A stretch of DNA of 64,000 nucleotides from Thermoanaerobaculia bacterium (GTDB taxonomy: Bacteria; Acidobacteriota; Thermoanaerobaculia; Gp7-AA8): positions 1,239 to 65,238 of the forward strand of contig DASYMJ010000009.1 of assembly GCA_036009105.1 (NCBI GenBank), in the 5' to 3' direction. Shown here piece by piece: positions 34,138 to 50,568 of this stretch. The notes under the pieces are model-generated. The model made no database searches, had not been told where the DNA came from, and was given only the letters and a program-made list of their open reading frames with translations. Each line of letters starts with the position of its first letter. Within the stretch, counting starts at the first letter, position 1. Both the position numbers and the translations under genes were made by a program.

Positions 34138-37100
34138 ATGAAGAAACTCGTCGTCATGGCCATGGCCCTGTGCAGCTTCTCAATCGGCTGCCATAGGGAA
34201 GACACGAAAGCAGCGGCGGTGTGGCGGACGGTGGAGCCGCGGCTGACGGCCGCCACGAAATGGCAACCGTGCACCCGCCCTCAATGCGGCGCCGGGCCCT
34301 CCGCATCCATTGCGAGCACCTGTACTGTCGATATCCGCACCCACGAGCAGGCCCTGTACGCCATTGCGCATCAGCCGGAATGCCTCGGATCGGCGATCGA
34401 CGTGTTGAGCCGTCTCGCGAAGCACGATCTACGCGCCCGAAGCGACCTCGCCGCGGCGTATTACGTCCGCGCGCAGGTGGAGGACCGCCCGATTTACCTG
34501 CTGATGGCCTGGGAGCAGATCAAAGACCTGCCCGGCCTGCCCGAGGCGCAATTCAATGTTGCGTTGATTCAGGAGAAGCTGGGCCGTACGGAGGATGCAA
34601 GGCGCTCCTGGGATGCATACCGTGCGCGCGACGTCTCGCCATGGGGGAATGAGGCCCGCCAGCACGGCGACCGGTTGAACGAGGAGTTGCGCCATGCGGC
34701 GTACAAGGAGTGGCCGGTCAATCGGCGCCTGTTGCGCGCGGCTCTTGCCGGCCAGGACCACGCCAGGGTAGTGAGCCTGATCCGCGCGTTTCCCACTCCG
34801 GCGCAGACGTATCTGGAGGACGAGGTCATCCCGCAATGGGCAGCCTCCGGTGCCCAAAAGGATCTGGACGCCGCAAGACTGCTGGCCGAGGCGGTGTCGG
34901 AGGTACAGCAGGACCCATTCGCCAGGGACGTCGTCGCGGCCATTACCAATGCATCCGATCGGAGCGTATTGAGGAATGCGCACAAGGCGTATGCAAGGGC
35001 GCGACGGGCGGAGCGTGGATTCGACAGAAAGAACGCGCTCGCGCGTTATGACAGAGCGGTGACGCTGCTCACCCGCGGGCATAGTCCCTTGCGGTTCAAC
35101 GCGGAGCTCGGACTGGCAGTCAATCGCTTCCTCGAGAAAAAGGGACGGCCTGAAGGTGCGCTGGAACGCCTGAAACGCGAAATTCCGTCCATTTACCCGC
35201 ACACCGCGGCACGGGTCATGGCCACCGTCGCGTTCGCGCAGAACTTCAGTGGCAATCACCTCGGGGCTCGCGAGCAGTACGAGAGGGCAACGAACGCCTA
35301 CAGGCGCCTGCACGACTACGAGTACATGACTGCAGTGCAGAGCGCCGCGTCCGGCGTCTCCCTGGAACTCGGCGACAAAGAGCGCGCCTGGCACGAAGCT
35401 TTGGAGACGAACGAGCACGCCGCGGAGATCGCCGACCCGCGCCGCCGCCATGTTCGCCTGGGGGCGCTCTCCGATGCCGCACAGGCGCTCGGGCATCCCG
35501 ATGTCGCGCTGCTCTATCAAAGCGAAGCGGTCGAAGCCATGCAGCAGGAGCTGGTCAACGAGCCCGTTCAGAACCTGGATGTGATCCAGGGACTGCAGCA
35601 TCACTTGAGCGTTGCGCTGCGGAATCGGGCCAAGGTCAGGCTTGCGCTTGACCCCGAACAGCGCGAGAAGGCCTCCGCTGATCTCAGGGACGCTTTAGGT
35701 CTGGTGGAGACCAAAGAGGACGCGGACACACAGAACAGCAGGGACCTTCGATCGAGCATCTATACGGTGGAAGGCTCGCAGCTTCTGCGCGCCGACCCGC
35801 AAGGCGCGGTCAAAGCCTTCACCAAGGCCATCGAGCTGCTGCCGGAAAACGAGCTGCCGAACCTCCGCACCTCGCTGCTCACCCGGCGCGCAAGAGCGTT
35901 CCGGCTGGCCAAACATCCGAAGGAAGCCGAAGCCGACCTGGAAGCGGCGCTTGCGGAGTTGGATCGCGAGGAAGCGATTCAGCTGGAGAACCGGCGCAGT
36001 GGAAAAGAAGAGGAGATCTGGAGCTTATTTTTTGAACGCTTTCAAGACACCTATCGGGAGCTGATCGACCTGCTCGCCGCGCGTGGCCAATACGAACAAG
36101 CGTTCGCCTATGCCGAGCGAGCGAAGGCTTTCGAGCCGCTCGATCTCATTCTTCACCTCCCCTATGCGCCGCAACGATTCCGGGAGTTGACGAAAGGCCG
36201 TGAGCCGATCGCATTGCACGAGATTCAGGCCGCTTTGCCGGCGGAGACGTACCTCCTGGAGTACTCCGTGCTGGAGGACAGGACCATCGTCTGGATCATC
36301 GGCCGGCGGTTGTCCCGTTGGATGTCGCTCCCCGTGGGCCGCAATGAAATCGCCTCGTGGCGCGCGAGAATCCAGGAGGCGGTCGAGCAATCCGACGACC
36401 ATGGTCTCAAGAGCAATCTGGCATTGGCTTACGACGGATTGTTGCAGGAGCCGTGGAAGCTGATTCCGAAAACGGCGAGCCGTGAACCGCGGATCGTGAT
36501 CATTCCGGACGGCGAGATGCGCGGGCTGCCGTTCAATGCGCTGCGACATCCCATCAGGGGCTACTTCGTCGAACACGCGATCGTCAGCGTCCACGGCAGC
36601 GCCACGCTTTATGTTTTCTCCTTGTTGCGCGACGGCGAGTTGAAGACGGGCAATGCGTCCGCGCTGCTGATCGGTGATCCGGAATTCGACGCGACCCTTC
36701 GAGAGGCCAGGGAGCTGCTCCGCCTCCGCGGTGCGCGAAACGAGGTAAACAACATCAGCCAGTTCTACGCGCCGAACGCCACGGTGAGAAAAGACAAGGA
36801 CGCCACAATTGCTGATTTCCTACAAAGAGCAGTCCATAGCGAGATCATCCACATCGCGGCGCACGGCGTGGTCGATGAGGAGCACCCTTCCAGGTCGGCA
36901 ATCCTGCTGGCCAGGACGGCCACCGACTCCGGCAGGCTCGACGCGCAGACGCTCTCCGGATTGCGCCTGAAGCTGGCGCGGCTCGTCGTGCTGGCCAGTT
37001 GCAGCAGCGCGGGCGGCGTTCCTGTAGGTCCGGAAGGAGTCGCGCCGCTGGTGCGGCCATTCATCGGCGCCGGCGTGCCGGCTGTTGTGGGCAGCCTCTG

Positions 37101-37320
37101 GGAATTCGCCGACGCCACAGCGGAACCTCTCCTCGTGTCTTTTCATCGGCACTATCGGGAACCAGGCCAGGACGCGGCAACAGCGCTGCGCGCGGCCCAA
37201 CTCGAAGCGCTCGATGAAAACAAACCCTTGCGCGCATGGGCCCCGTTCGAGGTGATCGGCTACGCATCGTCACCCGTCCCGGCTCCGGCAGCAGGCACGA
37301 AGGAGAAACGACCACCATGA
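34138..37320 (+). CDS. CHAT domain (caspase-like clan CD peptidase) TPR-repeat lipoprotein
   Basis: ORF track 1060 aa. Lipobox MKKLVVMAMALCSFSIGC. TPR-like helical repeats. C-terminal CHAT with IIHIAAHGV and LVVLASCSSAGG (His/Cys dyad). Confidence 0.8.
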   Translation: MKKLVVMAMALCSFSIGCHREDTKAAAVWRTVEPRLTAATKWQPCTRPQCGAGPSASIASTCTVDIRTHEQALYAIAHQPECLGSAIDVLSRLAKHDLRARSDLAAAYYVRAQVEDRPIYLLMAWEQIKDLPGLPEAQFNVALIQEKLGRTEDARRSWDAYRARDVSPWGNEARQHGDRLNEELRHAAYKEWPVNRRLLRAALAGQDHARVVSLIRAFPTPAQTYLEDEVIPQWAASGAQKDLDAARLLAEAVSEVQQDPFARDVVAAITNASDRSVLRNAHKAYARARRAERGFDRKNALARYDRAVTLLTRGHSPLRFNAELGLAVNRFLEKKGRPEGALERLKREIPSIYPHTAARVMATVAFAQNFSGNHLGAREQYERATNAYRRLHDYEYMTAVQSAASGVSLELGDKERAWHEALETNEHAAEIADPRRRHVRLGALSDAAQALGHPDVALLYQSEAVEAMQQELVNEPVQNLDVIQGLQHHLSVALRNRAKVRLALDPEQREKASADLRDALGLVETKEDADTQNSRDLRSSIYTVEGSQLLRADPQGAVKAFTKAIELLPENELPNLRTSLLTRRARAFRLAKHPKEAEADLEAALAELDREEAIQLENRRSGKEEEIWSLFFERFQDTYRELIDLLAARGQYEQAFAYAERAKAFEPLDLILHLPYAPQRFRELTKGREPIALHEIQAALPAETYLLEYSVLEDRTIVWIIGRRLSRWMSLPVGRNEIASWRARIQEAVEQSDDHGLKSNLALAYDGLLQEPWKLIPKTASREPRIVIIPDGEMRGLPFNALRHPIRGYFVEHAIVSVHGSATLYVFSLLRDGELKTGNASALLIGDPEFDATLREARELLRLRGARNEVNNISQFYAPNATVRKDKDATIADFLQRAVHSEIIHIAAHGVVDEEHPSRSAILLARTATDSGRLDAQTLSGLRLKLARLVVLASCSSAGGVPVGPEGVAPLVRPFIGAGVPAVVGSLWEFADATAEPLLVSFHRHYREPGQDAATALRAAQLEALDENKPLRAWAPFEVIGYASSPVPAPAAGTKEKRPP

Positions 37321-38393
37321 GCACGTTCATTTTGCGCATTCTCTTCAGCGGCTTGATCAGCTTCGTCCCCAATCAGGACGGCACCGAGCTGACGGTCCTC
37401 CTGGTCAACGTCGACCACACCTACCACACCTCCGACGGCACCCACCTCGATCACCACAAACCGCTCCTCCTCGCCCGCGGCGGCGGCTGCACCGGCACCT
37501 GTCCCACCGACGACGACGCAATCGCCCGGTTCATCTATCCCGATCAGGCGCAGTCGGCAAGACTCGATTCGCTGGCCACGGCGGTCAGCGGCGGCGGCGC
37601 GTGGCTCCTCGACAACTCCAAGCTCACCCTGCAGAAAGGCAGCACCAACGACCCCAACCTCCCCGCCCTCAGCATCGTGCGCAATGCGCGCGGCTCGACC
37701 AACAACGTGCTGGACCTCATCCCCACCACCTCCGCCGAGCGGGAGGACTACAGCTGGGTCGCCGATCTGAAATCGATCTGCTCATCCTGCGACCTCAAAT
37801 CCGCCGTGCACGACGCCGAGCCGCCGGCCGGCCTCGTTGCCGCGCGCTTCAAGCTGCGCAACGGACGCGTCTTCACCTACTCGGTGGCGCGCATCGGCAG
37901 CGACGTCACGCCGGTGCAGTTCAAGCGCCTCAACGGCCAGGGCTCGGTCTCGCCCTACTCGCAGGCCGTCGCCACCTGGGTCGCGGCGGACATCGAGGTC
38001 AGCGGCGACAGCATCGAGATGATCGACCAGAAGTTCGACGGCAGCTCCAGCCGCTCGATGACCCTCACCCCCGATGAAAACGGCCGGGTGGAGATGGCCG
38101 TGCTGAACCTGCCGACCTTCGCGCCGCCGCCGGCCGCGCGCGTCAGCGCGCCCGGCATCGGCAAGCACTTCGAACGGTACTACGACCTCGTCGACACGCC
38201 GCCCTCGAGCGGCGACCGCCTCGTCCCCTGGGCCGGCGCGGCGCCCAACACGCCGTCGTATCCGCAAGTCGCGTGGGATGACATCCACCCCACCGAAGAG
38301 CTCTGGTCGGAGCTCCTCAACCAGCTGCGGCTCAACATCGGCCGCACCACCTACGACCGGACCATCTGTCCGCCCTTCAACGGCACCCCGTAA
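37317..38393 (+). CDS. hypothetical protein (358 aa) within caspase operon
   Basis: Start MSTFILRILFSGLISFV with SD AAGGAGAAACG. ATGA overlap with CHAT gene stop. Confidence 0.55.
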   Translation: MSTFILRILFSGLISFVPNQDGTELTVLLVNVDHTYHTSDGTHLDHHKPLLLARGGGCTGTCPTDDDAIARFIYPDQAQSARLDSLATAVSGGGAWLLDNSKLTLQKGSTNDPNLPALSIVRNARGSTNNVLDLIPTTSAEREDYSWVADLKSICSSCDLKSAVHDAEPPAGLVAARFKLRNGRVFTYSVARIGSDVTPVQFKRLNGQGSVSPYSQAVATWVAADIEVSGDSIEMIDQKFDGSSSRSMTLTPDENGRVEMAVLNLPTFAPPPAARVSAPGIGKHFERYYDLVDTPPSSGDRLVPWAGAAPNTPSYPQVAWDDIHPTEELWSELLNQLRLNIGRTTYDRTICPPFNGTP

Positions 38394-38453
38394 CTCCTTC
38401 GACGGTCCGCCGCACCCCGCGGCGGGCCGTCCCTTCCGCTGGAGATCACGACG

Positions 38454-38888
38454 ATGAGAACGAACTTCTTCCTGGTGATGCTCGTCGCCTGCGCGGCTCT
38501 GACCAGCTGTACGAGCGATGCCGCCCCCGCGACCACCATCCCTCCTCGCATGGCCAAGAATCATGGCCGGAGCGATCGCATCCGCGCCGCAGCCGCATTC
38601 ACCAGCCGCTACGCGAGCTCGCCCTTCGCCGGTTGGAAAGTGCGTGCCGAGGCGGCCGGGCCGCTTTGCAATGTGCTGGTCATCCGGACGCCGATCGTCA
38701 TGGAAGGCGCGATGGTCGATGCGATGCATCACGGCGATGGCGAATACGAGATCGACGACGGCGGCGTGCAGCGTTTCTATCTGGAAGAGACGTTCCGCGG
38801 CGTCGCCTACCGCGACGGCTCCGACCGCATCTGGACTTACGGCGCGGTGAAGGAGGCGGAAGTCGAGGAGCTCGAGCCATGTCACTGA
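38454..38888 (+). CDS. hypothetical lipoprotein (144 aa)
   Basis: ORF track. Lipobox LVACAALTSC. Confidence 0.5.
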   Translation: MRTNFFLVMLVACAALTSCTSDAAPATTIPPRMAKNHGRSDRIRAAAAFTSRYASSPFAGWKVRAEAAGPLCNVLVIRTPIVMEGAMVDAMHHGDGEYEIDDGGVQRFYLEETFRGVAYRDGSDRIWTYGAVKEAEVEELEPCH

Positions 38889-41029
38889 TGGCTCGTCTCA
38901 CCATGGTTCTCGCGCTGCTGGCGTTCGCGCTTGATGTCGATGCGCAGGTGCATCGGCGCGCGCTGCTGATCGGCATCAACGACTACAGCGCCTCGCGCTT
39001 CACCGCCCGCCCCCCAACCGACCGCGATTGGCCGAACCTCGGCGGCGCCGTGCGCGATGCCGGCATCCTGCGGGAGCTGCTCGTCCTGCTCTACGGCTTC
39101 GAGGAGCGAGACATCGTCACGCTCAGCGATCAGGCCGCGACGCGCGAGGCCATCCTGCAATCGACCGAGGAGCAGCTCGTCCGCGGCGCGGCGAAGGACG
39201 ACGTGGTCTTTTTCTACTTCGCCGGCCACGGCTCGCAGGTGGCGAACTCGCTCTCCGCGGAGCCGGATCAGCTCGACGAGTCGATCGTACCGGCCGACTC
39301 GCGAGCCGGCGCGCCGGACATCCGCGACAAGGAGCTGCGCGCGCTCTTCAACCAAATCCTCGACCGCGGCGCGCGGCTGACGGTGATGCTGGACAGCTGC
39401 CATAGCGGCTCCGGCGCACGCGGCCTGGCGACGGGCGCGCATCCACGCGGCGTGCGGCCTGATCTGCGCGACATCCGCGATGGCGCCGAGGCCGGTCCGC
39501 GTCCGGAAGATCGCGGCGCACTGGTGCTGACCGCGACGCGGGACGACGGCATCGCGCTCGAGACGCGCGACGCGGATGGGCTGCACGGCGCTTTCTCGCT
39601 CGCCTGGATCAAGGCCATGCGCGACGCGGCGCCGGGCGAGCCGGCGAGCGAGACGTTCCTCCGCGCGCAGGCGCGGATGCGCGCCGGGATGCCGTTCCAG
39701 GAGCCGGTGATGGCCGGCGACGCCGCGGCGCGAGCCCGCCCCTTCCTCGGCACACGCATCGATCGGAGCGGCGGCCGCAATGCGGTCGGCGTGGAGCGCG
39801 TGCTGAAAGACGGGACGGTGCTGCTGCAGGGAGGGTGGGCGAACGGTCTCGCCGTGGGGGCCCAGCTCCGCGCCGCGAACGGCACGCGGTTGACCGTGAC
39901 CACCATGCTCGGCCTCGGCCGCAGCGAAGCTCGCGTCGAGGCGGGGCCGGCCGCCATGCAACCCGGCTCGCTGCTGGAAGTGGTCGGCTGGGCCGCCCCT
40001 CCCGGCCGCCCCCTGCGTGTTCATGTGCCGAAGGCGCCGCACGTGGCTGCTCTCGCCTCCCGGCTGTTCGCCGCCGCGAACCAACGCGGCATCCGCTGGA
40101 TCGACGATCCCTCCGAAAGCACGCCGACCCATCAGCTCCGCCTCGGCGCCGGCGGCTGGGAGCTCATCAGCCCGGACGGGGATGCGCAACGTTTCGGCGC
40201 CGAGGAGGCGGTGGAGCACGTCCCTGCCGGCTCGTCGCTGTTCGTTCAACTGCCCGCGCCCGCGGCCATCGACATCGCGTCGACGGCGAGCGCCGAAGAG
40301 GCGGACTACATCCTGGTGGGGCGTTACGTGAAGCAGCGGCTCGAATACGCCTGGGTGCGGCCGGGAGTGCGCAAGCGCGACCAACGCGGCAGCGGCCTGC
40401 CGGTGCGCTCGGACTGGATCCGCAACGGCCGCGAAACGGCCGCCATCCTTCGCGACACGCTCCTCCGCCTGCGCCGCATCCACGCCTGGCAACATCTGCA
40501 GTCGCCGCCCGAGTCGCGCTCGCCGTACCGGCTGGCCTTGCGCGGTGCGCGCAGCGGTGAGCTCGTGCAGGACGGCGTCGTCATCGGCGGCCAGTCATAC
40601 CGGCCGGTGCTGCGGCCGCCGGCGACCGCCACCGATATCCAGCCGCGCTTCTTCTACGTCTTCATCGTCGACCGGCACGGCAAGAGCTATCTCGCCTTCC
40701 CCGGCGGTGCGGTGGAGAACCGCTTCCCTCTCGGCGCGCCTGCGAAAGAGGTCGCGCTCGACCGGTTCCGGGTGCTGCCCCCCTTCGGAGTCGACACGTA
40801 CTTTCTACTGTCCACGGACGAGCCGCTCCCCAACCCCTGGATCCTGGAGTGGGACGGCGTCCGTGCGCGGTGCCCGCGGGCTCCCACCGCGCTCGAACAG
40901 ATGCTCATGCTCACCGCGTCCGGCGAGCGGGCCGGGAGGGGGGTGACGCCGGTCGGCTGGTCGCTGGAGCGCGTGGTGTACCAGTCGGTTCCACCTCCGG
41001 TGAAACGGAAACCGAAGAAACGCCACTAA
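38879..41029 (+). CDS. caspase-family (peptidase C14) secreted protein with ~500-aa C-terminal extension
   Basis: Start MSLMARLTMVLALLAFALDVDAQ (alternative ATG at 38888, which is ATGA-coupled). ALLIGINDY...FYFAGHG...DSCHSG caspase His/Cys dyad. Confidence 0.8.
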   Translation: MSLMARLTMVLALLAFALDVDAQVHRRALLIGINDYSASRFTARPPTDRDWPNLGGAVRDAGILRELLVLLYGFEERDIVTLSDQAATREAILQSTEEQLVRGAAKDDVVFFYFAGHGSQVANSLSAEPDQLDESIVPADSRAGAPDIRDKELRALFNQILDRGARLTVMLDSCHSGSGARGLATGAHPRGVRPDLRDIRDGAEAGPRPEDRGALVLTATRDDGIALETRDADGLHGAFSLAWIKAMRDAAPGEPASETFLRAQARMRAGMPFQEPVMAGDAAARARPFLGTRIDRSGGRNAVGVERVLKDGTVLLQGGWANGLAVGAQLRAANGTRLTVTTMLGLGRSEARVEAGPAAMQPGSLLEVVGWAAPPGRPLRVHVPKAPHVAALASRLFAAANQRGIRWIDDPSESTPTHQLRLGAGGWELISPDGDAQRFGAEEAVEHVPAGSSLFVQLPAPAAIDIASTASAEEADYILVGRYVKQRLEYAWVRPGVRKRDQRGSGLPVRSDWIRNGRETAAILRDTLLRLRRIHAWQHLQSPPESRSPYRLALRGARSGELVQDGVVIGGQSYRPVLRPPATATDIQPRFFYVFIVDRHGKSYLAFPGGAVENRFPLGAPAKEVALDRFRVLPPFGVDTYFLLSTDEPLPNPWILEWDGVRARCPRAPTALEQMLMLTASGERAGRGVTPVGWSLERVVYQSVPPPVKRKPKKRH

Positions 41030-41067
41030 TGCACGGGTCCCGTGTCCTGAGAGAGAGGGTACCGCCC

Positions 41068-42810
41068 ATGAATGCTCGGAAGCTGCTGGTCGTCTTCGTT
41101 CTGACGCTCCTGCTCACGCCACCGGCCTGTGATCACACTCGCTCCGCGGGGCCCGCGGACGAGGAGAGTGCGGATGGGGCGGGCCTCTTCGATCGCACCC
41201 GATCGGCCGGCCTGTTCGTCGGCATCAACCGTTTCGACGACAAGACCATCGCGCGCGTCGACTATGCGGTGGATGACGCGGTCGATCTCGCCTGGAACTT
41301 CTCGCTCAATCCGCGGATCAACCTCATCGCCCCCACACGCATCGTGCTCGCCCTCTCCGGATCGGCGAATAAGAAGGAGTCGAAGGAACGGCTCGCCGAT
41401 CTGAAACGCGCCGGCGCCGTGGTCAGCCGCGCCACGCGCGATGACATCGCGGCGCTGCTCCAGCAACAGGCAGCGGCCGCCGGCAAGCAGGGAGTCTTCA
41501 TCGCGGCCTTCGCCACGCACGGCTACAGCGAAGAAGGCGTCCCCTACGTCCTGGCCTCGTCCTCCATTTACGGGGTTCCGGCGACGGCGCTCTCCGCGGC
41601 GAAGGTCTTCGAGATCGCATCCGATGCGGGCGCGCAGCGCTCGCTGATCTTTGTCGACGCCTGCCGGGAGCGTTTGAAAGCCTCGGCGCGTTCCGGCGAG
41701 GCCGATCCGGATGCCGCCGCGGCATTGCTCGCCGCGATGAACCCGGTGGAGGGGCAGGCGGTCTTTTTCGCGGCCGCGGCAGGTAAATACGCCTACGACG
41801 ACAGCGTGCGGAAGAACGGCGTCTTCTCCGCGGCGGTGCTCGACGGCCTGCGGTGCGGCGCGGCCACCGATGCGCGCGGCTTCGTCACCGTCGATACGCT
41901 TTCCACCTTCGTGGAGCAACGCGTCCACAGCTGGCTGGTGGCCCATCGCCGCGGCAGCAGCGGCAGCGCGACGCAGACGAACATGGATGGCGGTACGAGG
42001 GACATGCCGCTCGCGCAGTGCAGGGCGCCGCAATCGAACATCGCCAGCCTGGTCAGCGTACCGCCTGCCCGCAATCCCGATCACTTCGCCATCGACGGCA
42101 CTTCGATCGAGGTACTCGGCAAAGACGGGACGTCGCTCTGGAAGCACGAGGTGGCAGGTCGCATTGCCCGCGTCGAAGTGGTCGACCTGGACGCGGATGG
42201 CTTGAACGAAGTCGTCGTGAACGTCGGCCGAATCATCGTTTTCCATCCCTCCGGCGAGGAGTGGTGGCGCTCTCCCACCGACCCACGGCTGGCGGTGACC
42301 GCGTTCAGCACCGCGAATCTCTTCCGCAACCAGAAGCAGGAGATCATCGCCATCTACGCAGCCGATGACGGCTCGGCCGGCTCGCGCCTCACCATCTTCC
42401 AGCCCGATGGGAAAAACCGTGGCGACTATCCGTATGCCGGCCGCCTCCAGTCCATCGCAACCGGGAAGGAGACTTCCCATCACTGGCCCAGGCTGGTGGT
42501 TTACGGCACGGACGACAGTCTGGACGAGCAGCTCGACGTCGCCGGTCCGCTCGGAAATGTGTTCATGCTGAATCCGAACAAGCTTGCCAAGCCGCTCTGG
42601 TCCGTGGCAGTCCTTCCCCAAACGCAACGGATCGCAAGCGTGAAGTTGATCGATTACGACAATGACACCCATCAGGACATCTCCATCACCATGGCGGATG
42701 GATCGATGGTCTACCTCGACTTCGCCGGCGAATTCCTCTCCGGCGACAGCAGCGCCCGATTCGTGCGGATGAAAAAGGAAGTCAGCAGGCAGGCCACCAT
42801 TCGGCGATGA
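41068..42810 (+). CDS. caspase-family lipoprotein with C-terminal FG-GAP/beta-propeller-like repeats
   Basis: Start MNARKLLVVFVLTLLLTPPAC (lipobox) with SD GAGAGAGGG. LFVGINRF...AFATHG...FVDACRE dyad. VDLDADGLNEVVV and IDYDNDTHQDISI repeats. Confidence 0.8.
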   Translation: MNARKLLVVFVLTLLLTPPACDHTRSAGPADEESADGAGLFDRTRSAGLFVGINRFDDKTIARVDYAVDDAVDLAWNFSLNPRINLIAPTRIVLALSGSANKKESKERLADLKRAGAVVSRATRDDIAALLQQQAAAAGKQGVFIAAFATHGYSEEGVPYVLASSSIYGVPATALSAAKVFEIASDAGAQRSLIFVDACRERLKASARSGEADPDAAAALLAAMNPVEGQAVFFAAAAGKYAYDDSVRKNGVFSAAVLDGLRCGAATDARGFVTVDTLSTFVEQRVHSWLVAHRRGSSGSATQTNMDGGTRDMPLAQCRAPQSNIASLVSVPPARNPDHFAIDGTSIEVLGKDGTSLWKHEVAGRIARVEVVDLDADGLNEVVVNVGRIIVFHPSGEEWWRSPTDPRLAVTAFSTANLFRNQKQEIIAIYAADDGSAGSRLTIFQPDGKNRGDYPYAGRLQSIATGKETSHHWPRLVVYGTDDSLDEQLDVAGPLGNVFMLNPNKLAKPLWSVAVLPQTQRIASVKLIDYDNDTHQDISITMADGSMVYLDFAGEFLSGDSSARFVRMKKEVSRQATIRR

Positions 42811-43421
42811 TCGTGTCGGTATTGGCGCAGATGACCGCACCGATCGATTCATCGCGGCATGACGAACTGGTCCGCCGCTACCGCGAAGCCATCGTCCGCC
42901 ATCTCATGCGGCAATTCCGGTTTCCGCGCGAGGACGCGGAGGACATCGCGCAGGAGACGTTCCTCAGCGTGTATAAAAGCATGGACCGGTACCGCGGCGA
43001 ATCGGAATGGATATACCTGAGAACGGCCGCGCACAACTTCGCGAAGAACTGGTTCCGGCACAGGCAGACGCAGATGCGGAACGAGGCACTGAATACGCCC
43101 ATTGACGTCATGCCCGATCAGGGTGATGGCAAGTCATCCATCGAGGACGAGCTCGTACGCAAAGAGCAGAAGAAGCGCTTCAACACGAGCTACCGCGACG
43201 CGCTGGCGAAGCTGCCCGAGCTCACCCGCAACTGCGTCCTCCTGCTGCTGCGCGACACCAGCTACAAGGACATCGCCACCATCACGAAGCTGACCATCGA
43301 CGCGGTACGCTCGCGCCTGCGGGACGCGAGGAAGCGGCTGCGCAACGAAGCCGGCGCGGCGGCGGAGGGGCTCAACTGGCCGGAGGTGGCCGAAGAGGAT
43401 GACGATGAGCACGAGAACTGA
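42807..43421 (+). CDS. ECF sigma factor (paralogue B), ATGA-coupled to caspase gene
   Basis: ORF track 204 aa. DIAQETFLSVY region 2. YKDIATITKLTIDAVRSRL region 4. Confidence 0.8.
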   Translation: MIVSVLAQMTAPIDSSRHDELVRRYREAIVRHLMRQFRFPREDAEDIAQETFLSVYKSMDRYRGESEWIYLRTAAHNFAKNWFRHRQTQMRNEALNTPIDVMPDQGDGKSSIEDELVRKEQKKRFNTSYRDALAKLPELTRNCVLLLLRDTSYKDIATITKLTIDAVRSRLRDARKRLRNEAGAAAEGLNWPEVAEEDDDEHEN

Positions 43422-44052
43422 TTGGGAAGCCGCGGCCGAGGACTTCATGGCCGCCGAACGCGGGCGCCTCGGCGGACCGCCGACGCCGGAAGAAGTCGTC
43501 GCCTACGCGCGCGGCGAGCTGTCGGAGGCCGATGCGTCGCGCGTGCGCTCGCTGCTCGTCTGCTATCCCGAGCTGACCTCGGTGCTCACCGAGCCGCCGC
43601 CGCGATTCGCCGCGCGCCGGCGCATCACCTCGACGCGGCTGTTCGCGCTGGCCGCGAGTGTGCTGCTCATCATCAGCGCCGGCCTCGGCATCCAGCTGCG
43701 GCGCCAGAGTCAGGAGTTGAACACGCCGCACGTGATGTCGGTTCACGACCTGACGCCGAGCCTGCTCACGCGCGGCCCGCGGCAGCCGCCGAACCGTCTG
43801 GTCGCGGACGAGAAGAATTCGGTGCTCGTATTCAACTACCTGCCGGAAGCGCCTCGCTATCGCATCGAGCTGCTGGAGGGAGCGCAGAGCCTGTGGACGG
43901 CAAGGGTTGCCAACAAGAACGGCGAGCCCATCCAGCTGTCCCTGCGGCGCGGCCTGGCGCCGGGCAACTATCGCGTCGATGTCTACGGAGCGGACGACTC
44001 GACGCCGCTGGCCACCTACGAGCTCCGCGTCAGCGAACCACCGCAGGAATGA
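43399..44052 (+). CDS. putative anti-sigma factor (paralogue B)
   Basis: ORF track 217 aa. Conserved with 32792..33547: TPEEVVAYARGELSEADASRVRSLLVCYPEL versus TVEEMLAYTRGELSPEDEERVRRLLVLHPEL. TM LFALAASVLLIISAGLGI. Confidence 0.6.
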   Translation: MTMSTRTDWEAAAEDFMAAERGRLGGPPTPEEVVAYARGELSEADASRVRSLLVCYPELTSVLTEPPPRFAARRRITSTRLFALAASVLLIISAGLGIQLRRQSQELNTPHVMSVHDLTPSLLTRGPRQPPNRLVADEKNSVLVFNYLPEAPRYRIELLEGAQSLWTARVANKNGEPIQLSLRRGLAPGNYRVDVYGADDSTPLATYELRVSEPPQE

Positions 44053-44185
44053 CCAGCAGCAGCACCGCGATGGGCAGCGCGCATCCCAACGGTGGTGCGA
44101 TGGACGTCCGGCCGCTCGGGTCTGCGCACGAGGAGCAGGATGAAACAGGCGATGCCGGCCGCGGCGGCGATGATGGAGAAGAGGA

Positions 44186-46687
44186 TCACAGGAAGGTCTC
44201 CTCGGGGTTGGACGCGATCGGCTTGGCGGGCAGCAGATCGGGAGCGGCCGCGGACTCCGCATGGCGCGAGGGGTCGTACTGCGAGCGGTAGTAGTCGAGC
44301 TGCCCGAGGATGTAGGCCGGGTAGTGCAGGACCCGGGTGAAGACCTGGATGCGCAGCGGATCGGCGGCGGGTTCCCGGTGCGCATCGGGAAAGCGGCGTT
44401 GCAGTTGCGCGGCGAACGCGGCGTCGGACGGGTCAGCCCAGAGCGTCGCGTCGCGCTGCATGGCGAGCTGCGCCTCCGGGTCGTCGTCGCGCAGGTCGAC
44501 CAGCGGCGCGCTGTGATCAGCGAGCCGCTTGAGGCGCTGCCCGGCGTCCCCGCTGAGCTGCGCCGCATGGGCGATGGTCAATTTGCGGAAGGGATCGATG
44601 GCGCGCGCGGCGAAAGCGGTCACGCGCTGCCTCAGCTCCTCGAGGGAGAGGCGCAGTGATTGCGAACGGCTCACGCACGTCTCGAAGAATTCGCGGAACA
44701 GCGGCTTGCGATCCTCCGAGGTGCGCTCGAACCAGCGGTCGACGTCCGCATCGTCGAGGATGGCGATGGACAGATGGTCGGATTGGATGGAGGGCGGCGC
44801 GAGCGACAACGCGAACTGCTCCAGCTCGACCGTGCGCGCGCGCAGCGCGTCGAGCATCTGCTTCGCGGCGTTGCGAGTGTCGTGCAGCACGCGCAGCGTG
44901 GCGCGGCGATGCGCCATGTCGCACTCGAACTGCAGCTCTTCCTGATGCGCGGTGTTCTTCGCCCGGTCGGTCAGCTCGATCTGGACGCGGATGCGCTCCA
45001 GCTCCTCGCGGGCGAGGCGGATGGGCGGCGCGATGTCGCGCACGTAGCGCACGGCGGAGTAGAGCGCGAAGAGGCCGAGAGCCATCGCGGCGGTCCAGTG
45101 GATGCGCTCCAGGTTCGGGCCCAGGACGCCGAACGCGAACGGCACCCCGTAGACCGCCGCAAAGCCGAACGCGGCCCACAGAATGGTGCGCCAGAGAAAT
45201 GCACGCCTCGCTTCCAGAGCCTCGCGCAGCGCCTGCTCCGCGCGCGGCCGGCGCGCGAAGAGCTCGCGCAGCCGCTGCTCCGCCGCCTCCGTCTCCCCCG
45301 CCAGCCGTGCCGCTTCGGCATCGCGCGCCGCGTGACGCGCCGTGTTGTTCGCCGTCTCCTCCGCGAACAACAGTTCGGGCAGGCGGCGCGCGAGCTCGTC
45401 GCGCTCCTCCTCCAGCGCCGCCAGTTGCTCCGGCGCGCTCTGCGCATCGAGCACGCCTGCGATCGGCTTCTGCTCGACGACGAGGTGGTCCAGCTCGCGG
45501 GCGCGTTTGCGGCCGGCGTCGCTCGCGGCGGTGTTCGGCGTGAAGCGCAGCCGCGCATCGAGCGCCGCCGTGGCGGCGTTGATCTCGGTGACCAGATTGC
45601 GCGGCGCGACATCCGTTTCGGCGTGCAAGTCCGGCAGCGGATCGACCAGCGCTTCGACCAGGCGGATCGCGGCCGCGTAGCCGTCGCGATCGAGCGATTC
45701 GTTCACCGTGCGGCCGAGCAGCGTGGCGAACTCGGTAGTGGTCTGCTCGCTCTGCGCGTGCAGCGTTTGCAGGTTCTGCGCATGGGTCGTATCGCGATGC
45801 ACCATCAGCTCGTGACGCACCGCGGCGATCACCTCCTCCGCCGTGCGGGTGTGCTCCGTCACCCGCGTCCTGGCCTGGAAGCGCTGGAACAGCGAGCGGC
45901 CGGCGTCGAGCCCGATGCGCGAGAGCGGCAGGGCGAAGGCCTCGCCAACGACGAACTGCCTCGCCGCCAGTTGCGGCTGCGGTGCCGCACCGGCGGCCAG
46001 CAACTTGCCGCGCACGAGCTCGGACGCGAAGCGCGTCTCCAGGCGCTGCGCGGCCACGTCGCGCGGGAAGAAGAGCTCCGCGCAGCCGAAGGAGCTGAAC
46101 GTCGGATCCATCCCGCGGGGACGCCGCCCTGCCGGCGCGCCGCTCATCTCCGGCTCCAGCAATACCGCGCCGGCAACGGCCTGCGCGTATGCGTCCTGCG
46201 ATTGCTCGAGATGGCCGAAGCGGACGCGGCTCGCGTTCATCGCGTCGAGAAGCCAGAACACGTCGAACGGCCGGGGCCGCGCGGCGCTGGCCAGCTTCAG
46301 CAGCGAATAGGCGGCGCCGTAGTCGGCCCCGGCGAAGAGATCGGGAAGCAGGCAGAGGATCTCGACGGTGAAGTAGGCCGCCAGGCGCCGCATGTCGTAG
46401 AGCTCACGCACCTGCCGCGCAACCTCGAGCACCTTCCCGCTGGTGGCGGACGTCACGAGCAGCACCAGCTCGCGCGTCTTGATGTCGTCCCGCGCGCGCA
46501 ACGGACTGTCCGGCGCCTGCCGACGCGCATGCACCGAAGCCACCGCCTCGGCGAGCGGCTCGCTGAAGATGGCGCGCATCTGCACCAGATCGTCGAGGCC
46601 GCACGCGGCGGCGACGCGCTGCTGCACGGCGGCGGCAAGCGACGCCGCCGCCTGGTCGAGAGCAAGGATGGTGACCGGCTTGAGCAT
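44186..46687 (-). CDS. large coiled-coil membrane protein whose N-terminal domain is a degenerate (GTP-motif-less) paralogue of the adjacent tubulin-like GTPase
   Basis: ORF track 833 aa. VTILALDQAAASL / LVLLVTSATSGK / PFDVFWLLDAMN align to VVIGLGGTGHGAL / VYIVGSVAGGTGSG / PFDLIYLLDNIN of 46691..49423. Two TM helices, LWRTILWAAFGFAAVYGVPFAFGVLG and WTAAMALGLFALYSAV. Confidence 0.6.
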   Translation of the reverse strand: MLKPVTILALDQAAASLAAAVQQRVAAACGLDDLVQMRAIFSEPLAEAVASVHARRQAPDSPLRARDDIKTRELVLLVTSATSGKVLEVARQVRELYDMRRLAAYFTVEILCLLPDLFAGADYGAAYSLLKLASAARPRPFDVFWLLDAMNASRVRFGHLEQSQDAYAQAVAGAVLLEPEMSGAPAGRRPRGMDPTFSSFGCAELFFPRDVAAQRLETRFASELVRGKLLAAGAAPQPQLAARQFVVGEAFALPLSRIGLDAGRSLFQRFQARTRVTEHTRTAEEVIAAVRHELMVHRDTTHAQNLQTLHAQSEQTTTEFATLLGRTVNESLDRDGYAAAIRLVEALVDPLPDLHAETDVAPRNLVTEINAATAALDARLRFTPNTAASDAGRKRARELDHLVVEQKPIAGVLDAQSAPEQLAALEEERDELARRLPELLFAEETANNTARHAARDAEAARLAGETEAAEQRLRELFARRPRAEQALREALEARRAFLWRTILWAAFGFAAVYGVPFAFGVLGPNLERIHWTAAMALGLFALYSAVRYVRDIAPPIRLAREELERIRVQIELTDRAKNTAHQEELQFECDMAHRRATLRVLHDTRNAAKQMLDALRARTVELEQFALSLAPPSIQSDHLSIAILDDADVDRWFERTSEDRKPLFREFFETCVSRSQSLRLSLEELRQRVTAFAARAIDPFRKLTIAHAAQLSGDAGQRLKRLADHSAPLVDLRDDDPEAQLAMQRDATLWADPSDAAFAAQLQRRFPDAHREPAADPLRIQVFTRVLHYPAYILGQLDYYRSQYDPSRHAESAAAPDLLPAKPIASNPEETFL

Positions 46688-46690
46688 GGC

Positions 46691-49423
46691 TCAGATCTCG
46701 ATCTGGCGCATGTAGTCCTCGATGGCCACGATCTCGCTCTCCACCTGATCCTTCACCGCCGCATCGACCGCGCCGGACATCTGCCGGGTGAGCGAGTCGC
46801 TGTAGTCCTTCAGGATCTGGATCACCTTCGCCGCTCCCTCGCGCGTGACGATCGCGTCGATGACCTCCTTCGCCTCCTGCACGCAATCGCGGTTCTTCTC
46901 GAAGGCCGCGTAGGCGGGCACGCGTCCCTGGGCGAGGCGTACGAGGTTGCCTTCCACGCGCTTGCCGTTCTTCGACTTCATCGAGTACCAGGCGCCCTCC
47001 CGGCGGATGAGCGCGAACGGTTCCGGCGCCTGGGCCACGGCGAACCAGCGCAGCGCCTCGCCATCGCCGCTGCGCGGCACGAGGTTCGGCACGTCCTGCC
47101 AGCGACGGTCGACATGATTGGAGATCGCCTTGTTCGGATCGAGGTAGGCGCGCTCCATGTCCTCGATCTCCGCCAGTGCGAAGAGCGGCACGCCGGTCTT
47201 GACCTTGAAGAGGAGGATGCGCCGCGGGTCGCGCGTGGAGACCATGCCCGCTTCCTTGTTGCCCGCGGGGACGCCGGCCTTGTACTTCGATTCCTTCAGG
47301 ATGGTCGTGTCGGCGTCGGCCACGCCGTAGTGGTAGAACTCGTTGATGACGGTCTGGCTCACCACCGGGATGCGGCCCACGTCGTAGCGCCACAGCGGCA
47401 CGGCGAGGTTGTCCAGCCGCTTGAGCTGCTGCGAGACTCCCTCCGGGGAAAGCCGCCGCAGGATGTCGTCCATGGTGAGCGACGTCAGCGCCTCATAGCG
47501 GCTCTCCACGAACTGGTTGATGTCCGCATGCACTTCCGCCGCGCGCAGGCCGGCCCACTGTGAGAGCGAGCCGTTGTGGTGATCGGCGTACCACTTGATG
47601 AAGTCCTCGCCCGTGACCTTCGGCCGGTGCTCGCCCGGATCGAAGCCGACGACCTGCTCGAAGAGGCGCGCATTGCCGCGGCTGTTCGTGGCATCGAGGT
47701 GCTGCTGCTCGAACTGCTTGCGCGCGGCGTTGAGGTTCTCCCGGATGCGATAGCAGTGGTCGAGGACGGATTGCGTGTGCGCGTGCAGCGACGAATAGAG
47801 CTCGGCCGCCTTCTCCAGGCGGGCCACGACGATGGTCAGCTCCGTCTCGCGATCGACGATGCCGCCGTAGACTTCGCAGGCGGTCTTGATGCGCGCCTCG
47901 CGCCTCAGAAACGCCCCCACCGCCTCCCCGATCTGCTCCTCCGCCGTCCTGAAATTGAGCGCCTTCAGTTTGGCGCGCTCCTCCTTCGCCTCGCCATCCA
48001 TCATGTTGCGGTACCACTCCAGCTTCGCCTGCAGCTTCTCGAAGAAGCGTTCCGCGCGGGTGAAGCCGTTCACGCGGTTGACCGCCGTTTCCCACCAGGC
48101 GTCAACGGCCCGCACCGATTCGTGGCACAGCTTCGCGAAGTTCGTGGCCATGGCCTGTGCAATCTGCCGCTCGGCCTTGGAGCGGTGGACGGCGTGCAGG
48201 TTCTTGACGGTGCCGAGCGCCTTGTTGTCGTACTTCATCTGGCCGAGGGGCATGGGGAAGCGGAGCTGGCCGCCGCCTTCCCGCTGGCTGAGCGCTTCGA
48301 TGACCTGATCGGCGTTGTCCTCGCGCAGGCGATGCTGGTCGATGAACTGCTGCACGTCCTGCTCGACGTCGGAATCGGCCACCGTGCCGTTGAGGAGATC
48401 GTCGATGACGAGGCGCTTTGCATCCTCGTACATCAGCGCATCGAAGGTGGGCATGGTCAGCGACGCAACGCCGAAGCTGCAGTACTGCGGCGAGCGCCCC
48501 TTCACCCGGCCGACGGTGGCGAGCTGGGTCTTGATGTTGTCGACGGCATTGGCGTTGTCGGTCCCGATCTGCGAGCCGATCTGGACGTACATGCCGTCCG
48601 CGATCACGTTGTGAATCTCCCCCTGCTCGGTGACCACCCGGCCCTGCTCGTTGATGTTGTCGAGGAGGTAGATCAGGTCGAACGGCGGGCGCGAGACTGC
48701 GACCTTCCGCATGCCGTAGTCGATCTCGAAGCGGGCCTTCGTGGTGGAAAGGTATTCGAGCTCTTTCAGCGCGCCGTATCCGTTCGGCTTGACCAGCCCC
48801 ACGCCCGCCTTGCTGCCGAAGACGCCCGGCAGGAGCAGCACGGCGGTGAAGTTCGATTGCTCGTCGTTCCCGATGAGGTCTCGGGCCATGAAGGCGACGT
48901 CGAGAAAGAGGCCGCTGCCGGTGCCGCCCGCGACGCTGCCGACGATGTAGACCTCGACGCCGGAGCGCTGGGAGACCTGGAACTGATCGGCGTACATCTG
49001 CTTCTGGTTGCGGATGCCGCGCACGTCGTCGACGGCTCTGCGGATGCGGCCGTACACGTCCGGCGCCCTGGCGAAAAGCGCGAGCCTGCCGCGAGCGCGG
49101 ACCTGACCGGCGCCGGCGATGATGGCCATGGTGGGGATGTCGGAGGGGAACCACTCGTCGATGTGCGGGTTCGTGCCGTTCACCAGGCCGGCCGGGTTGC
49201 CGACCTGCAGGACCAGGACCTCGCCGTGATCGAGCTCGCCGTCGTGCGGGGCTTGGCCCGTCCCCTCGGCGTTCTCGGTGGTGTCGATGGAGAGGAAGCG
49301 GATGATGGGCGGCACGAAGCCGTAGGCGTCGACGAAGCGCTTCTTGAGCTTGCGCAGCGCGCCGTGGCCGGTGCCGCCGAGGCCGATGACGACGGTGGGG
49401 CGAAACACGACGTTGTTCTTCAT
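46691..49423 (-). CDS. tubulin/FtsZ-superfamily GTPase (FtsZ-like-1 / Tubulin_2-type) with large helical C-terminal domain
   Basis: ORF track 910 aa. N-terminal G-box VVIGLGGTGHGAL. AGGTGSG matches the tubulin signature [SAG]GGTG[SA]G exactly. ATGA overlap with the upstream vWA-FHA gene. Confidence 0.75.
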   Translation of the reverse strand: MKNNVVFRPTVVIGLGGTGHGALRKLKKRFVDAYGFVPPIIRFLSIDTTENAEGTGQAPHDGELDHGEVLVLQVGNPAGLVNGTNPHIDEWFPSDIPTMAIIAGAGQVRARGRLALFARAPDVYGRIRRAVDDVRGIRNQKQMYADQFQVSQRSGVEVYIVGSVAGGTGSGLFLDVAFMARDLIGNDEQSNFTAVLLLPGVFGSKAGVGLVKPNGYGALKELEYLSTTKARFEIDYGMRKVAVSRPPFDLIYLLDNINEQGRVVTEQGEIHNVIADGMYVQIGSQIGTDNANAVDNIKTQLATVGRVKGRSPQYCSFGVASLTMPTFDALMYEDAKRLVIDDLLNGTVADSDVEQDVQQFIDQHRLREDNADQVIEALSQREGGGQLRFPMPLGQMKYDNKALGTVKNLHAVHRSKAERQIAQAMATNFAKLCHESVRAVDAWWETAVNRVNGFTRAERFFEKLQAKLEWYRNMMDGEAKEERAKLKALNFRTAEEQIGEAVGAFLRREARIKTACEVYGGIVDRETELTIVVARLEKAAELYSSLHAHTQSVLDHCYRIRENLNAARKQFEQQHLDATNSRGNARLFEQVVGFDPGEHRPKVTGEDFIKWYADHHNGSLSQWAGLRAAEVHADINQFVESRYEALTSLTMDDILRRLSPEGVSQQLKRLDNLAVPLWRYDVGRIPVVSQTVINEFYHYGVADADTTILKESKYKAGVPAGNKEAGMVSTRDPRRILLFKVKTGVPLFALAEIEDMERAYLDPNKAISNHVDRRWQDVPNLVPRSGDGEALRWFAVAQAPEPFALIRREGAWYSMKSKNGKRVEGNLVRLAQGRVPAYAAFEKNRDCVQEAKEVIDAIVTREGAAKVIQILKDYSDSLTRQMSGAVDAAVKDQVESEIVAIEDYMRQIEI

Positions 49424-50568
49424 GCGGGATCCTCCTGGAGCGACGGCCGCTTGTGGCCGAGGCGGTTGAAGCGCAAGGTGGCGTCGCCGATGCGGATGGT
49501 GTCGGCGTCGTAGAGCTGGGTCTCGGGGACTTCGATGTCGTTCACGCGCAGCGTCCCGCTGCCGGCGGCGATCCAGATCTTCTTCTCGCCATTACGGCGG
49601 CGGCAGAAAAGGCGCGCGTCGGAGCCGCCGAGGGCATCCGGCGGGACGATCGCGCTCAACGCCACGTCCTTGATTTTCAGGCGCGGCAGTCCGACATAGG
49701 CCGCGTCCGCGCCCACTGGCGGCGCCACGATCTCCAGCTCGCCCTCCAGCGTGTTGCGCTCGGTGATCGCCGCGAGGAGCTCGCCCGGCGATTTGCCGCT
49801 GTAGAGGACCAGGGCGATGGAGGCGAGGAGGAGGAGGACGGTGAGGGCGGCGAGCCACTTCCAGGAGGAGCTGCTCTTCGCCACCGGCGGTGGCTCCGGG
49901 AGCTTCTGCACCACCTTGGGCGGCGGTGGCGGCGGCTTCGGCGGCGGCTGCACCGTCTGCCGGATGCTGCTGACCGCCTCGGCGATGTCGTGCGGCTTGA
50001 GGATCTTCGTGCGCTCCGAGGCAAAGGCATCGAGCTGCTGCTCGTGCTCGCCGAGAGAGACGAAGAAGACGTACGGCTTGCTCGTCGCCACGCGCTGGAT
50101 GTTGGAGGCGATGGTGATCGGATCGGGGATGCCACGCACGTCCTCCTTGCCGTCGGTGAAGAGGACGATGGCCCGCTCGCGCGTGGGGTCTTTGCGGCGC
50201 ATCGACTGCTCCGAGGCGTCGAGGCCCTTCGCGATGGCGCCGCCGAGGTAGGTGCGCTTGCCGTTCGCGCGCAGAGCGCGGATCAGATCGTGCAGCCGGT
50301 CGCGATCCACCGGCCCGCGGATGTCCACCGACCCGCGAAGCTCGACCTCGCGAGCGAACGAGTAGAGCGTTACCGAGTCGCCGACGCTCGCCTCGTTCAC
50401 GAACGTGCCGATGGCGGACTTTACGTCTCCGAAGATGTTCCTCGTCCCGCCCACTCCCCGCATCGACTGCGAGGTGTCGACGAGAAAGATCCAGTCGACG
50501 GCGCCGCGCGTCTGGGCGCGCGCCGTCCCTGCCAACAGCAACACGACCGCAACGACGAGTCGTTTCAT
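49420..50568 (-). CDS. vWA - TM - FHA domain protein (secreted vWA, C-terminal FHA)
   Basis: Internal start MKRLVVAVVLLLAGTARAQ with SD GGAGGAG. vWA IFLVDTSQSM ... IVLFTDGKED. Pro-rich linker, TM LAALTVLLLLASIALVLY. FHA-like GSGTLRVNDIEV...TIRIGDATLRF. Confidence 0.75.
   Translation of the reverse strand: MKRLVVAVVLLLAGTARAQTRGAVDWIFLVDTSQSMRGVGGTRNIFGDVKSAIGTFVNEASVGDSVTLYSFAREVELRGSVDIRGPVDRDRLHDLIRALRANGKRTYLGGAIAKGLDASEQSMRRKDPTRERAIVLFTDGKEDVRGIPDPITIASNIQRVATSKPYVFFVSLGEHEQQLDAFASERTKILKPHDIAEAVSSIRQTVQPPPKPPPPPPKVVQKLPEPPPVAKSSSSWKWLAALTVLLLLASIALVLYSGKSPGELLAAITERNTLEGELEIVAPPVGADAAYVGLPRLKIKDVALSAIVPPDALGGSDARLFCRRRNGEKKIWIAAGSGTLRVNDIEVPETQLYDADTIRIGDATLRFNRLGHKRPSLQEDPA

Follow-up and report, generated by a model that had tools for sequence, protein, structure and literature searches.

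Within the tubulin/FtsZ superfamily, no branch is more divergent or less well understood than the FtsZl1/Tubulin_2 proteins. The FtsZl1 family was defined, linked to vWA genes and predicted to belong to a membrane-remodelling machine in an earlier genomic survey (Makarova & Koonin 2010, PMC2875224). Additional file 5 of that survey includes the gene strings Ava_4733 (vWA), Ava_4732 (FtsZl1, 910 aa) and Ava_4731 (1015 aa, "coiled-coil"), as well as Cagg_1317, Cagg_1316 and Cagg_1315 (1083 aa, given the label "GrpE"), after which come genes of 128 and 385 aa; in Additional file 6 the associated families are merely called membrane-associated or large proteins. Here we describe a related locus in a 64-kb stretch (contig DASYMJ010000009.1, hereafter the window) of a metagenome-assembled genome (MAG) of Thermoanaerobaculia (Acidobacteriota), for which identical proteins are on record under the same name. 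Three open reading frames (ORFs), all on the minus strand, fill positions 44186-50568 of the window. Gene 1 (49420..50568) encodes a 382-aa protein with a vWA domain, a transmembrane (TM) helix and an FHA-fold tail, gene 2 (46691..49423) encodes the 910-aa FtsZl1/Tubulin_2 GTPase, here termed A, and gene 3 (44186..46687) encodes an 833-aa protein, here termed B, which profile comparison with hhalign indicates to be a paralogue of A along its full length; its GTP-binding loops are degenerate, and it is predicted to be inserted in the membrane.

The trio shares with the published FtsZl1-vWA operons (PMC2875224) the gene order, similar sizes, membrane-associated partners and, as in most of them, a vWA gene directly upstream. 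The module is of a known kind, its vWA-FtsZl1 operon having been published in 2010. That account did not identify the downstream gene as an FtsZl1 paralogue and noted neither its degeneracy nor its insertion in the membrane. It also makes no mention of the FHA-fold tail or the caspase/CHAT/ECF sigma setting, and Acidobacteriota lay outside its dataset. What appears to be new is the identity of the third gene as a full-length degenerate membrane-inserted GTPase paralogue, the FHA-fold tail and the conservation of the trio across phyla. From their position and size, and via the Nostoc homologue described below, we infer that Ava_4731 and Cagg_1315 belong to the B family.

The second related group is that of the firmicute DO-GTPase/GAP1-N2 conflict systems (Kaur et al. 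2020, PMC7159879), in which a pair of genes for coiled-coil proteins with tubulin domains occurs together with two vWA genes. In the portion of that paper considered here, the tubulin-coiled-coil genes are adjacent, one vWA protein has its vWA domain outside the cell, and the regulated build-up of cytoskeleton-like complexes close to the membrane is proposed. The same portion reports these systems as nearly absent from cyanobacteria, whereas the trio is found in Nostoc, and gives no indication that the second tubulin is inactive or held by a TM anchor. The first-pass annotation of the window had regarded the pairing of A and B as undescribed. That claim has to be narrowed in view of the vWA-FtsZl1 operon of 2010 and the two-tubulin systems of 2020, and it stands for the relationship of B to A, which had not been recognised. 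Searches of the literature for alr2042-2044, Ava_4731/4732, Cagg_1315 or an inactive or pseudo-GTPase FtsZl1 paralogue returned nothing. For FtsZl1/Tubulin_2 as a family, no experimental study was found in the literature searched, and no solved structure was detectable by sequence.

Judged from its sequence, A is a clear member of FtsZl1/Tubulin_2 and a predicted GTPase. Pfam PF13809 matched residues 11-330 on profile positions 1-343 of 356, with a score of 213.4 bits against a cutoff of 27 (E = 7.5e-63). The protein carries VVIGLGGTGHGAL at residues 11-23, including the T1/G1 box GLGGTG (residues 14-19, 49367..49384, minus strand), which is invariant across the A family. The tubulin signature AGGTGSG, corresponding to the T4 loop, lies at residues 165-171 (48911..48931, minus strand), and its GGTG.G core is likewise invariant across the family. 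Both motifs and the membership in FtsZ-like-1 had been read by the first-pass annotation from the letters alone, and all three were confirmed. The published FtsZl1 architecture (Makarova & Koonin 2010) consists of an FtsZ-like domain at the N-terminus, a long coiled-coil or helical stretch and an alpha-helical C-terminal domain, with a vWA gene in the operon. That of A agrees with it, with an FtsZ-like domain at the N-terminus of 910 aa and an overlapping vWA gene upstream. A hydropathy scan revealed no TM segment in A. We collected 444 homologues, many of which are called "tubulin-like domain-containing protein". Sequence searches against the PDB with A alone, the A profile or the B N-domain profile yielded no tubulin or FtsZ match. 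The C-terminal region of A (residues ~768-860, about 46840-47120 in the window) weakly resembles the RecA C-terminal domain (Pfam RecA_C, E = 0.0013). The RecA_C score was 27.6 bits against a cutoff of 27 in the homologue P0292, precomputed matches exist in many others, and the A family profile matched RecA in the PDB (3hr8) at E = 0.017; B has no equivalent of this region.

The relationship of B to A was evaluated at increasing depth of comparison. Against PF13809, B scored 13 bits (cutoff 27, E = 0.061), with only residues 121-225 aligned to profile positions 240-355, the C-terminal third of the domain. A precomputed match to this family is present in 6 of 120 B homologues. BLASTP between A and B was marginally significant (E = 3e-4). 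An initial hhalign comparison with shallow, low-diversity alignments gave a Prob of 81% (E = 1.2e-5) and already paired the motifs that had been matched by eye. After the addition of cross-phylum relatives, A 6-789 aligned with B 1-828 at a Prob of 99.7% (E = 3e-26); the homologues of B numbered 168. Since coiled-coil regions can inflate profile-profile scores, the domains were also compared separately. The N-domains alone matched with a Prob of 99.1% (E = 1.1e-18) and the C-terminal globular domains with 96.1% (E = 3.1e-9), and the helical middles were weakly similar (36.6%). In the cross-controls, the N-domain of A against the C-domain of B gave E = 0.29 and the C-domain of A against the N-domain of B gave E = 0.027. 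The N-domain score of 126 compares with at most 18.8 when the columns of the B alignment were shuffled 30 times and with 16.3 when the alignment was reversed. For the C-domain, the score was 67 against a maximum of 20.5 over 30 column shuffles, the best of which had E = 0.059. Because the real scores lie far above those of shuffled and reversed alignments, the objection of compositional bias is removed.

The profile alignment reproduced, block by block, the correspondence proposed in the first-pass annotation. GLGGTGHG of A is aligned with ALDQAAAS of B, VAGGTGSGLF with SAT----SGKVL, and LLLPGVF with CLLPDLF; further aligned blocks pair PPFDLIYLLDNIN with RPFDVFWLLDAMN and YCSFGVASLTMP with FSSFGCAELFFP. 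The C-terminal globular domain of B (about residues 638-822, 44222..44776, minus strand) is shared with residues ~597-785 of A according to hhalign, and B does not contain ~100 residues present in A between strand S2 and strand S4. From 1.84 billion cluster representatives, a hidden Markov model (HMM) built on the N-domains of 36 B proteins retrieved only 65 proteins at E <= 1e-3. These include Tubulin_2 proteins with an intact GLGGTG, namely P0291 (E = 2.7e-5) and P0292 (E = 4.7e-5), which have Pfam Tubulin_2 scores of 218 and 212 bits, respectively. The structure predicted for the B N-domain from a 36-sequence alignment, weak past residue 180, had its closest likeness in the tubulin/FtsZ GTPase domain; a Foldseek search of the PDB with the B N-domain gave no match at E <= 0.001. 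On these sequence comparisons, B is a paralogue of A along its whole length, including the C-terminal globular domain, and we regard the structural identification overall as highly probable.

In FtsZ and tubulin, the T1 and T4 loops hold the nucleotide phosphates. In the tubulin-like N-domain of B (residues 1-231, 45995..46687, minus strand), the A/B profile alignment places ALDQAA at T1 and SATSGK at T4, in agreement with the replaced glycines described in the first-pass annotation. According to the combined alignment, A-type proteins have an invariant GLGGTG at T1 and an invariant GGTGSG at T4, and the B proteins can be arranged in three tiers. The Thermoanaerobaculia members (tier 1) have [AT]LD[DE]xx at T1 and SAAGP-A or a shorter sequence at T4, with SAT--SGK in the window protein. 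Members of tier 2, including those of Nostoc, Halothece and Pseudanabaena, have ALDxxxA at T1 and S-x-DP.. at T4. The more distant proteins of tier 3 retain partial G-boxes at T1 (GLGGYG, GLGSTG, GLGDFG) and a partial T4. The loss of T1 and T4 holds in every member of tiers 1 and 2, and this degenerate state is kept across phyla. Three motifs remain common to A and all B tiers, namely the T5-like LLLP..F, the T6-like PFDxxWLxDxxN and SSFG..L.FP, and the B N-domain has 19 invariant and about 50 nearly invariant positions. With T1 and T4 replaced by acidic or shortened loops, GTP binding by B appears very unlikely. B is classed as a degenerate paralogue, not as a functional family member, because these loops are not intact. 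Filing B under Tubulin_2 was considered and rejected, as the protein falls below the Pfam threshold and does not carry the GTP-loop motifs.

The loss of the loops also limits the comparison with known tubulin pairs. The first-pass annotation had likened A and B to alpha/beta-tubulin or BtubA/B. This analogy proved imprecise because both subunits bind GTP in those pairs and B apparently has no phosphate-binding loops. In alpha/beta-tubulin, BtubA/B and the Asgard AtubA/B, both subunits also keep the glycine loops and are not integral membrane proteins, whereas B lacks T1/T4 and has a TM hairpin. FtsZl1 proteins further differ from tubulins by ~500-aa helical and C-terminal extensions. FtsA, ZipA, SepF and nucleators of the gamma-tubulin type offer a functional analogy to B only, as non-polymerising partners that tether or seed a tubulin-family polymer. 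The folds of FtsA, ZipA and SepF have no relation to that of FtsZ, whereas the proposed anchor B is a paralogue of the polymer subunit, and gamma-tubulin, unlike B, binds GTP and is not membrane-inserted.

The hydropathy scan of B predicted a TM hairpin at about residues 497-551 (45035..45199, minus strand), with the sequence LWRTILWAAFGFAAVYGVPFAFGVLG-PNLERIH-WTAAMALGLFALYSAVRYV. The two TM helices reported in the first-pass annotation are thus accounted for as a hairpin, of which one helix only passes the strict hydropathy threshold in the window protein. Relatives of B in tiers 2 and 3 also have TM segments at the corresponding place in the middle of the protein, and A-type proteins have none. 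The short hairpin loop and the flanking positive charges would place both globular ends of B in the cytoplasm.

A and B diverge at different rates. In pairs taken from the same contigs, identity was 88% for A and 78% for B, 81% and 66%, and 80% and 62%, and the comparison of the window with Nostoc gave 740 bits for A and 185 bits for B. By these measures A is the slower-evolving protein, which is the usual pattern of an enzyme and its pseudo-enzyme partner. The window B is shorter than most of its homologues (~920 aa), ending ~90 aa before them (3' end at 44186-44260). The conserved tail ..AYEQVLLGRA..GDSHLAAAQ..LL.RY, found by motif search in 108 of 119 B homologues, is missing from it and is not encoded anywhere else in the window. 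Other naturally short forms are P0018, P0054, P0077 and P0120. The tail of the B family has no similarity to the C-terminal 140 residues of A (E = 0.19). In some records, B-family proteins of Nostoc are called "Chromosome partition protein Smc" or "septal ring factor EnvC". These names, like GrpE on the positional equivalent in Chloroflexus, are probably misannotations driven by coiled coils.

The conservation of the trio was assessed in 36 loci, comprising 31 GTDB species representatives and metagenomic contigs. A lies directly upstream of B in all 35 loci with upstream sequence, and the vWA gene is upstream of A in all 32 loci with room for it. The three-gene block is also present in a Nostoc genome (L039; vWA 601 aa, Tubulin_2 915 aa, B-like 1018 aa), in L037, and in L004/L005, where the vWA domain and the TM and FHA part are on separate genes. 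In one Acidobacteriota MAG (L036, MFD01916.bin.2.105, 5030-12780), the vWA, A and B frames are split into many pieces, which suggests pseudogenisation or assembly indel errors.

Within the window, the layout showed predicted translational coupling of the vWA, A and B genes: an ATGA overlap combines the stop of gene 1 with the start of A, and 3 nt separate the stop of A from the ATG of B. A scan for an operon promoter and terminator found no promoter-like sites and terminator-like sites at chance level. An NCBIfam scan of the vWA protein, A and B returned nothing useful, and PADLOC-DB defence-system models matched none of the three with any family at E <= 1. A 57-codon ORF (44019-44189, minus strand) has a GTG start overlapping the B stop codon (GTGA). 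Its product would be a single hydrophobic helix (VILFSIIAAAAGIACFILLLV..), and on the opposite strand the 3' end of the anti-sigma gene overlaps it; it could be a chance ORF of high-GC DNA.

Gene 1 matched Pfam VWA_2 (53 bits, E = 4.9e-14) and VWA (51 bits, E = 2.8e-13). The identical 382-aa product at NCBI has the same start and is named VWA domain-containing protein. The vWA domain occupies residues 27-193 (49990..50490, minus strand, Pfam coordinates) and contains the metal ion-dependent adhesion site (MIDAS) motif DTSQS; the DxSxS pattern is intact in 120 of 120 gene 1 homologues. It is preceded by an N-terminus, MKRLVVAVVLLLAGTARA, that resembles a signal peptide. A proline-rich linker connects the vWA domain to a single TM helix at residues 239-257 (49798..49854, minus strand; mean Kyte-Doolittle value of 2.47 in a 19-residue window), and a tail of ~125 residues follows.

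According to the fold search, this tail contains a cytoplasmic FHA-fold beta-sandwich at about residues 277-368 (49465..49740, minus strand), with YscD, PrgH and EssC among the matches. The upstream gene had been described in the first-pass annotation as a secreted, ATGA-coupled vWA/TM/FHA protein. Its coupling, vWA domain, probable export and TM helix are borne out, and the FHA assignment is upheld at the level of the fold and not by Pfam. Pfam FHA models gave no family at E <= 1 for the full protein or at E <= 10 for the tail, in searches in which HMMER filters drop most matches above ~0.1, and precomputed FHA matches were present in 0 of 120 homologues. In a sequence-profile search of the PDB, the sole match of the tail was the Rv1747 FHA domain (E = 0.4). 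Inspection by eye of the family consensus at the places expected to bind phosphothreonine (pThr) found GLPxLK, [SGTAN]DARLF and GxLRVND. As the canonical GR, SxxH and NG residues are not evident there, the tail may belong, with those of YscD, PrgH and EssC, among the FHA-fold modules that act phospho-independently. The type III secretion proteins YscD/PrgH and the type VII secretion protein EssC are single-pass components with cytoplasmic FHA-fold domains, to which the gene 1 tail is likened. It differs from the canonical pThr-binding FHA domains of GarA, FhaA and Rv1747 in having no Pfam FHA match and no consistently linked Ser/Thr kinase. Of the trios in other lineages, those of L004 (E = 7e-28) and Nostoc (E = 4e-19) have a recognisable tail of this kind, and that of L037 does not.

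The tubulin operon is convergent with a set of plus-strand genes at 34138-44052. These encode a CHAT protease (34138-37320; Pfam CHAT, E = 8e-54), a 359/385-aa ORF (37317-38393) and a 144-aa putative lipoprotein (38454-38888), both with no Pfam or NCBIfam family, a caspase-like C14 protein (38879-41029), a second one with FG-GAP (41029-42810), an extracytoplasmic function (ECF) sigma factor (42807-43421; Pfam Sigma70_r2/r4) and a 217-aa ORF (43399-44052) labelled anti-sigma from its position after the sigma gene. The caspase-like pair matched Pfam Peptidase_C14 at E = 1.6e-19 and 3.4e-8, and both proteins have sub-threshold NCBIfam matches to "caspase, EACC1-associated type". NCBIfam anti-sigma matches of the 217-aa ORF were far below threshold (18.7 bits against 100). 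The same set, with one or two caspase-like proteins, was found in L001-L003, L014, L016, L018, L019, L025, L030, L032 and L035. In the usual Thermoanaerobaculia order, a caspase-like gene is divergently upstream of the trio, and a convergent series of a caspase gene, a ~130-aa gene, a ~360-385-aa gene and a CHAT gene (the last being the farthest) lies downstream; an ECF sigma/anti-sigma pair is also near the trio, and the gene order in the window is slightly different. At least one caspase-like gene is present in 23 of 34 Thermoanaerobaculia loci. As read from the sequence, the CHAT protein, the two caspase-like proteins and the 144-aa ORF product all begin with what looks like a signal peptide or a lipobox, and the site of action of the proteases may therefore be extracytoplasmic.

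The protease/sigma set does not flank the trio in Nostoc, L004 or L037, and it is therefore treated as an accessory layer and not as part of the core. In Nostoc (L039, 15629-17042), genes for an ECF sigma factor and an anti-sigma factor of the RskA type are located ~4.5 kb downstream of the trio; this echo of the Thermoanaerobaculia pair may be a coincidence. The 128- and 385-aa genes that follow FtsZl1 and its 1083-aa neighbour in Chloroflexus aggregans have the same sizes as the 144-/385-aa ORFs of the window (37317-38888). From this like-sized pair, the window ORFs may be partners of the tubulin genes instead of the protease genes. They are unrelated to similarly sized genes upstream of the L037 trio. 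The flanks of the trio in L001, L002/L003, L004/L005 and L037, several unrelated contigs, contain genes of the conflict or defence type, including a PIN toxin with DUF6364, a Type ISP restriction enzyme C-domain, RHS/YD-shell toxins, a SNIPE/T5orf172 nuclease and a type VI secretion Tle1-like lipase; this hints at a defence-island setting. No GTPase Pfam family was found near the trio in L001-L005, L037 and L039 or among the seven window genes at 34138-44052, a search in which no GAP1-specific model was used. Filing the locus as a DO-GTPase conflict system was rejected, there being no DO-GTPase or GAP1 gene linked to the trio.

Taken as a whole, we consider it fairly probable that the trio is a conserved, envelope-spanning FtsZl1-vWA module in which B is a non-catalytic membrane partner of A. 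The narrower proposal that B serves as anchor or assembly partner of A, for whose physical pairing genetic linkage is the basis, is offered tentatively, as falling slightly on the side of doubt. Under this proposal, B would be a nucleotide-free pseudo-tubulin, set in the inner membrane with its globular ends both on the cytoplasmic side, that tethers and possibly nucleates or caps GTP-dependent oligomers of A at the membrane. Contact between A and B would be made through what they still have in common: the T5-like, T6-like and SFG..L.FP motifs and the C-terminal domain. Metal-dependent binding of an extracytoplasmic ligand would take place at the MIDAS site of the vWA ectodomain and would be relayed by the FHA-fold tail to A/B assembly at the cytoplasmic face. 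In Thermoanaerobaculia, the embedding of the trio among CHAT/caspase-like genes with export-signal-like N-termini and ECF sigma/anti-sigma genes suggests an envelope-stress or conflict response, not housekeeping cell division.

The main rival is that B acts as a negative regulator, capping or sequestering A at the membrane until a signal, such as ligand binding by the vWA protein or cleavage by the nearby proteases, frees it. It fits the same homology, synteny and degeneracy data as an anchor, and the loss of the nucleotide face is what would be expected of a chain terminator. Protease genes with export-signal-like N-termini also lie near the trio in many loci, but they are missing from the Nostoc, L004 and L037 versions, so a release mechanism cannot generally depend on them. 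Capping and anchoring are not separable computationally, and we judge negative regulation to be unlikely. A different role, that of a scaffold in the membrane, serving for instance the vWA protein, working independently of the GTPase cycle of A and carrying a vestigial tubulin-like domain, would agree with the much faster evolution of B and with the tolerated loss of the C-terminal tail in about 5 of 119 homologues, the window B included. A vestigial domain would not, however, be expected to retain so many invariant and nearly invariant N-domain positions, to keep the T5/T6-like and SFG motifs in common with A across phyla, or to remain strictly adjacent to A in 35 of 35 loci, which makes this role improbable.

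It is more improbable still that B binds nucleotide through non-canonical residues, so that A and B would be two active paralogues as in alpha/beta-tubulin and BtubA/B. The retained T5- and T6-like motifs, with an invariant Asn (N151), and the partial G-boxes GLGGYG and GLGSTG of tier-3 relatives speak for such activity. Against it, T1 in tiers 1 and 2 reads Ala-Leu-Asp-Asp/Glu, which is acidic at the phosphate position, T4 is shortened or without its GGTG core in every member of these tiers, and the 13-bit Tubulin_2 match covers the C-terminal third of the domain only. Finally, the resemblance of A and B could have arisen from the Ala/Arg/Leu-rich composition of high-GC DNA (64-72% GC in the window) and from coiled-coil regions, both proteins having long helical regions. 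This explanation had been named in the first-pass annotation as the one that would overturn its claim. It is refuted by the domain-wise hhalign comparisons and the shuffle controls, and we give it practically no credence.

The anchor proposal can be extended to a signal-gated cytoskeletal element, an obligate pair of an active and a dead tubulin in which the membrane pseudo-tubulin templates or nucleates GTP-dependent FtsZl1 assembly only when the vWA sensor reports a ligand or a proteolytic event from outside the cell, via the phospho-independent FHA-fold tail. In Thermoanaerobaculia, the exported CHAT/caspase cascade would supply the event and the ECF sigma factor would read it out in parallel. 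This extension is speculative and, in our estimate, unlikely. If it were true, B would be the first membrane-integral pseudo-tubulin, and the module would represent a tubulin-family polymer controlled by a transmembrane receptor in bacteria. The same logic might reach families B1 and B8 of Makarova & Koonin, large genes of no assigned class located after FtsZl1 in Actinobacteria and Firmicutes.

If the identity of B holds, it would correct the database labels "Smc", "EnvC" and hypothetical, and probably also the "GrpE" of Chloroflexus. The presence of the same trio in Nostoc, a genus near the established Anabaena genetic model, makes the hypothesis genetically testable. The pair of A and B would provide a prokaryotic example of the enzyme/pseudo-enzyme pairing that is widespread in eukaryotic cytoskeletal and signalling systems.

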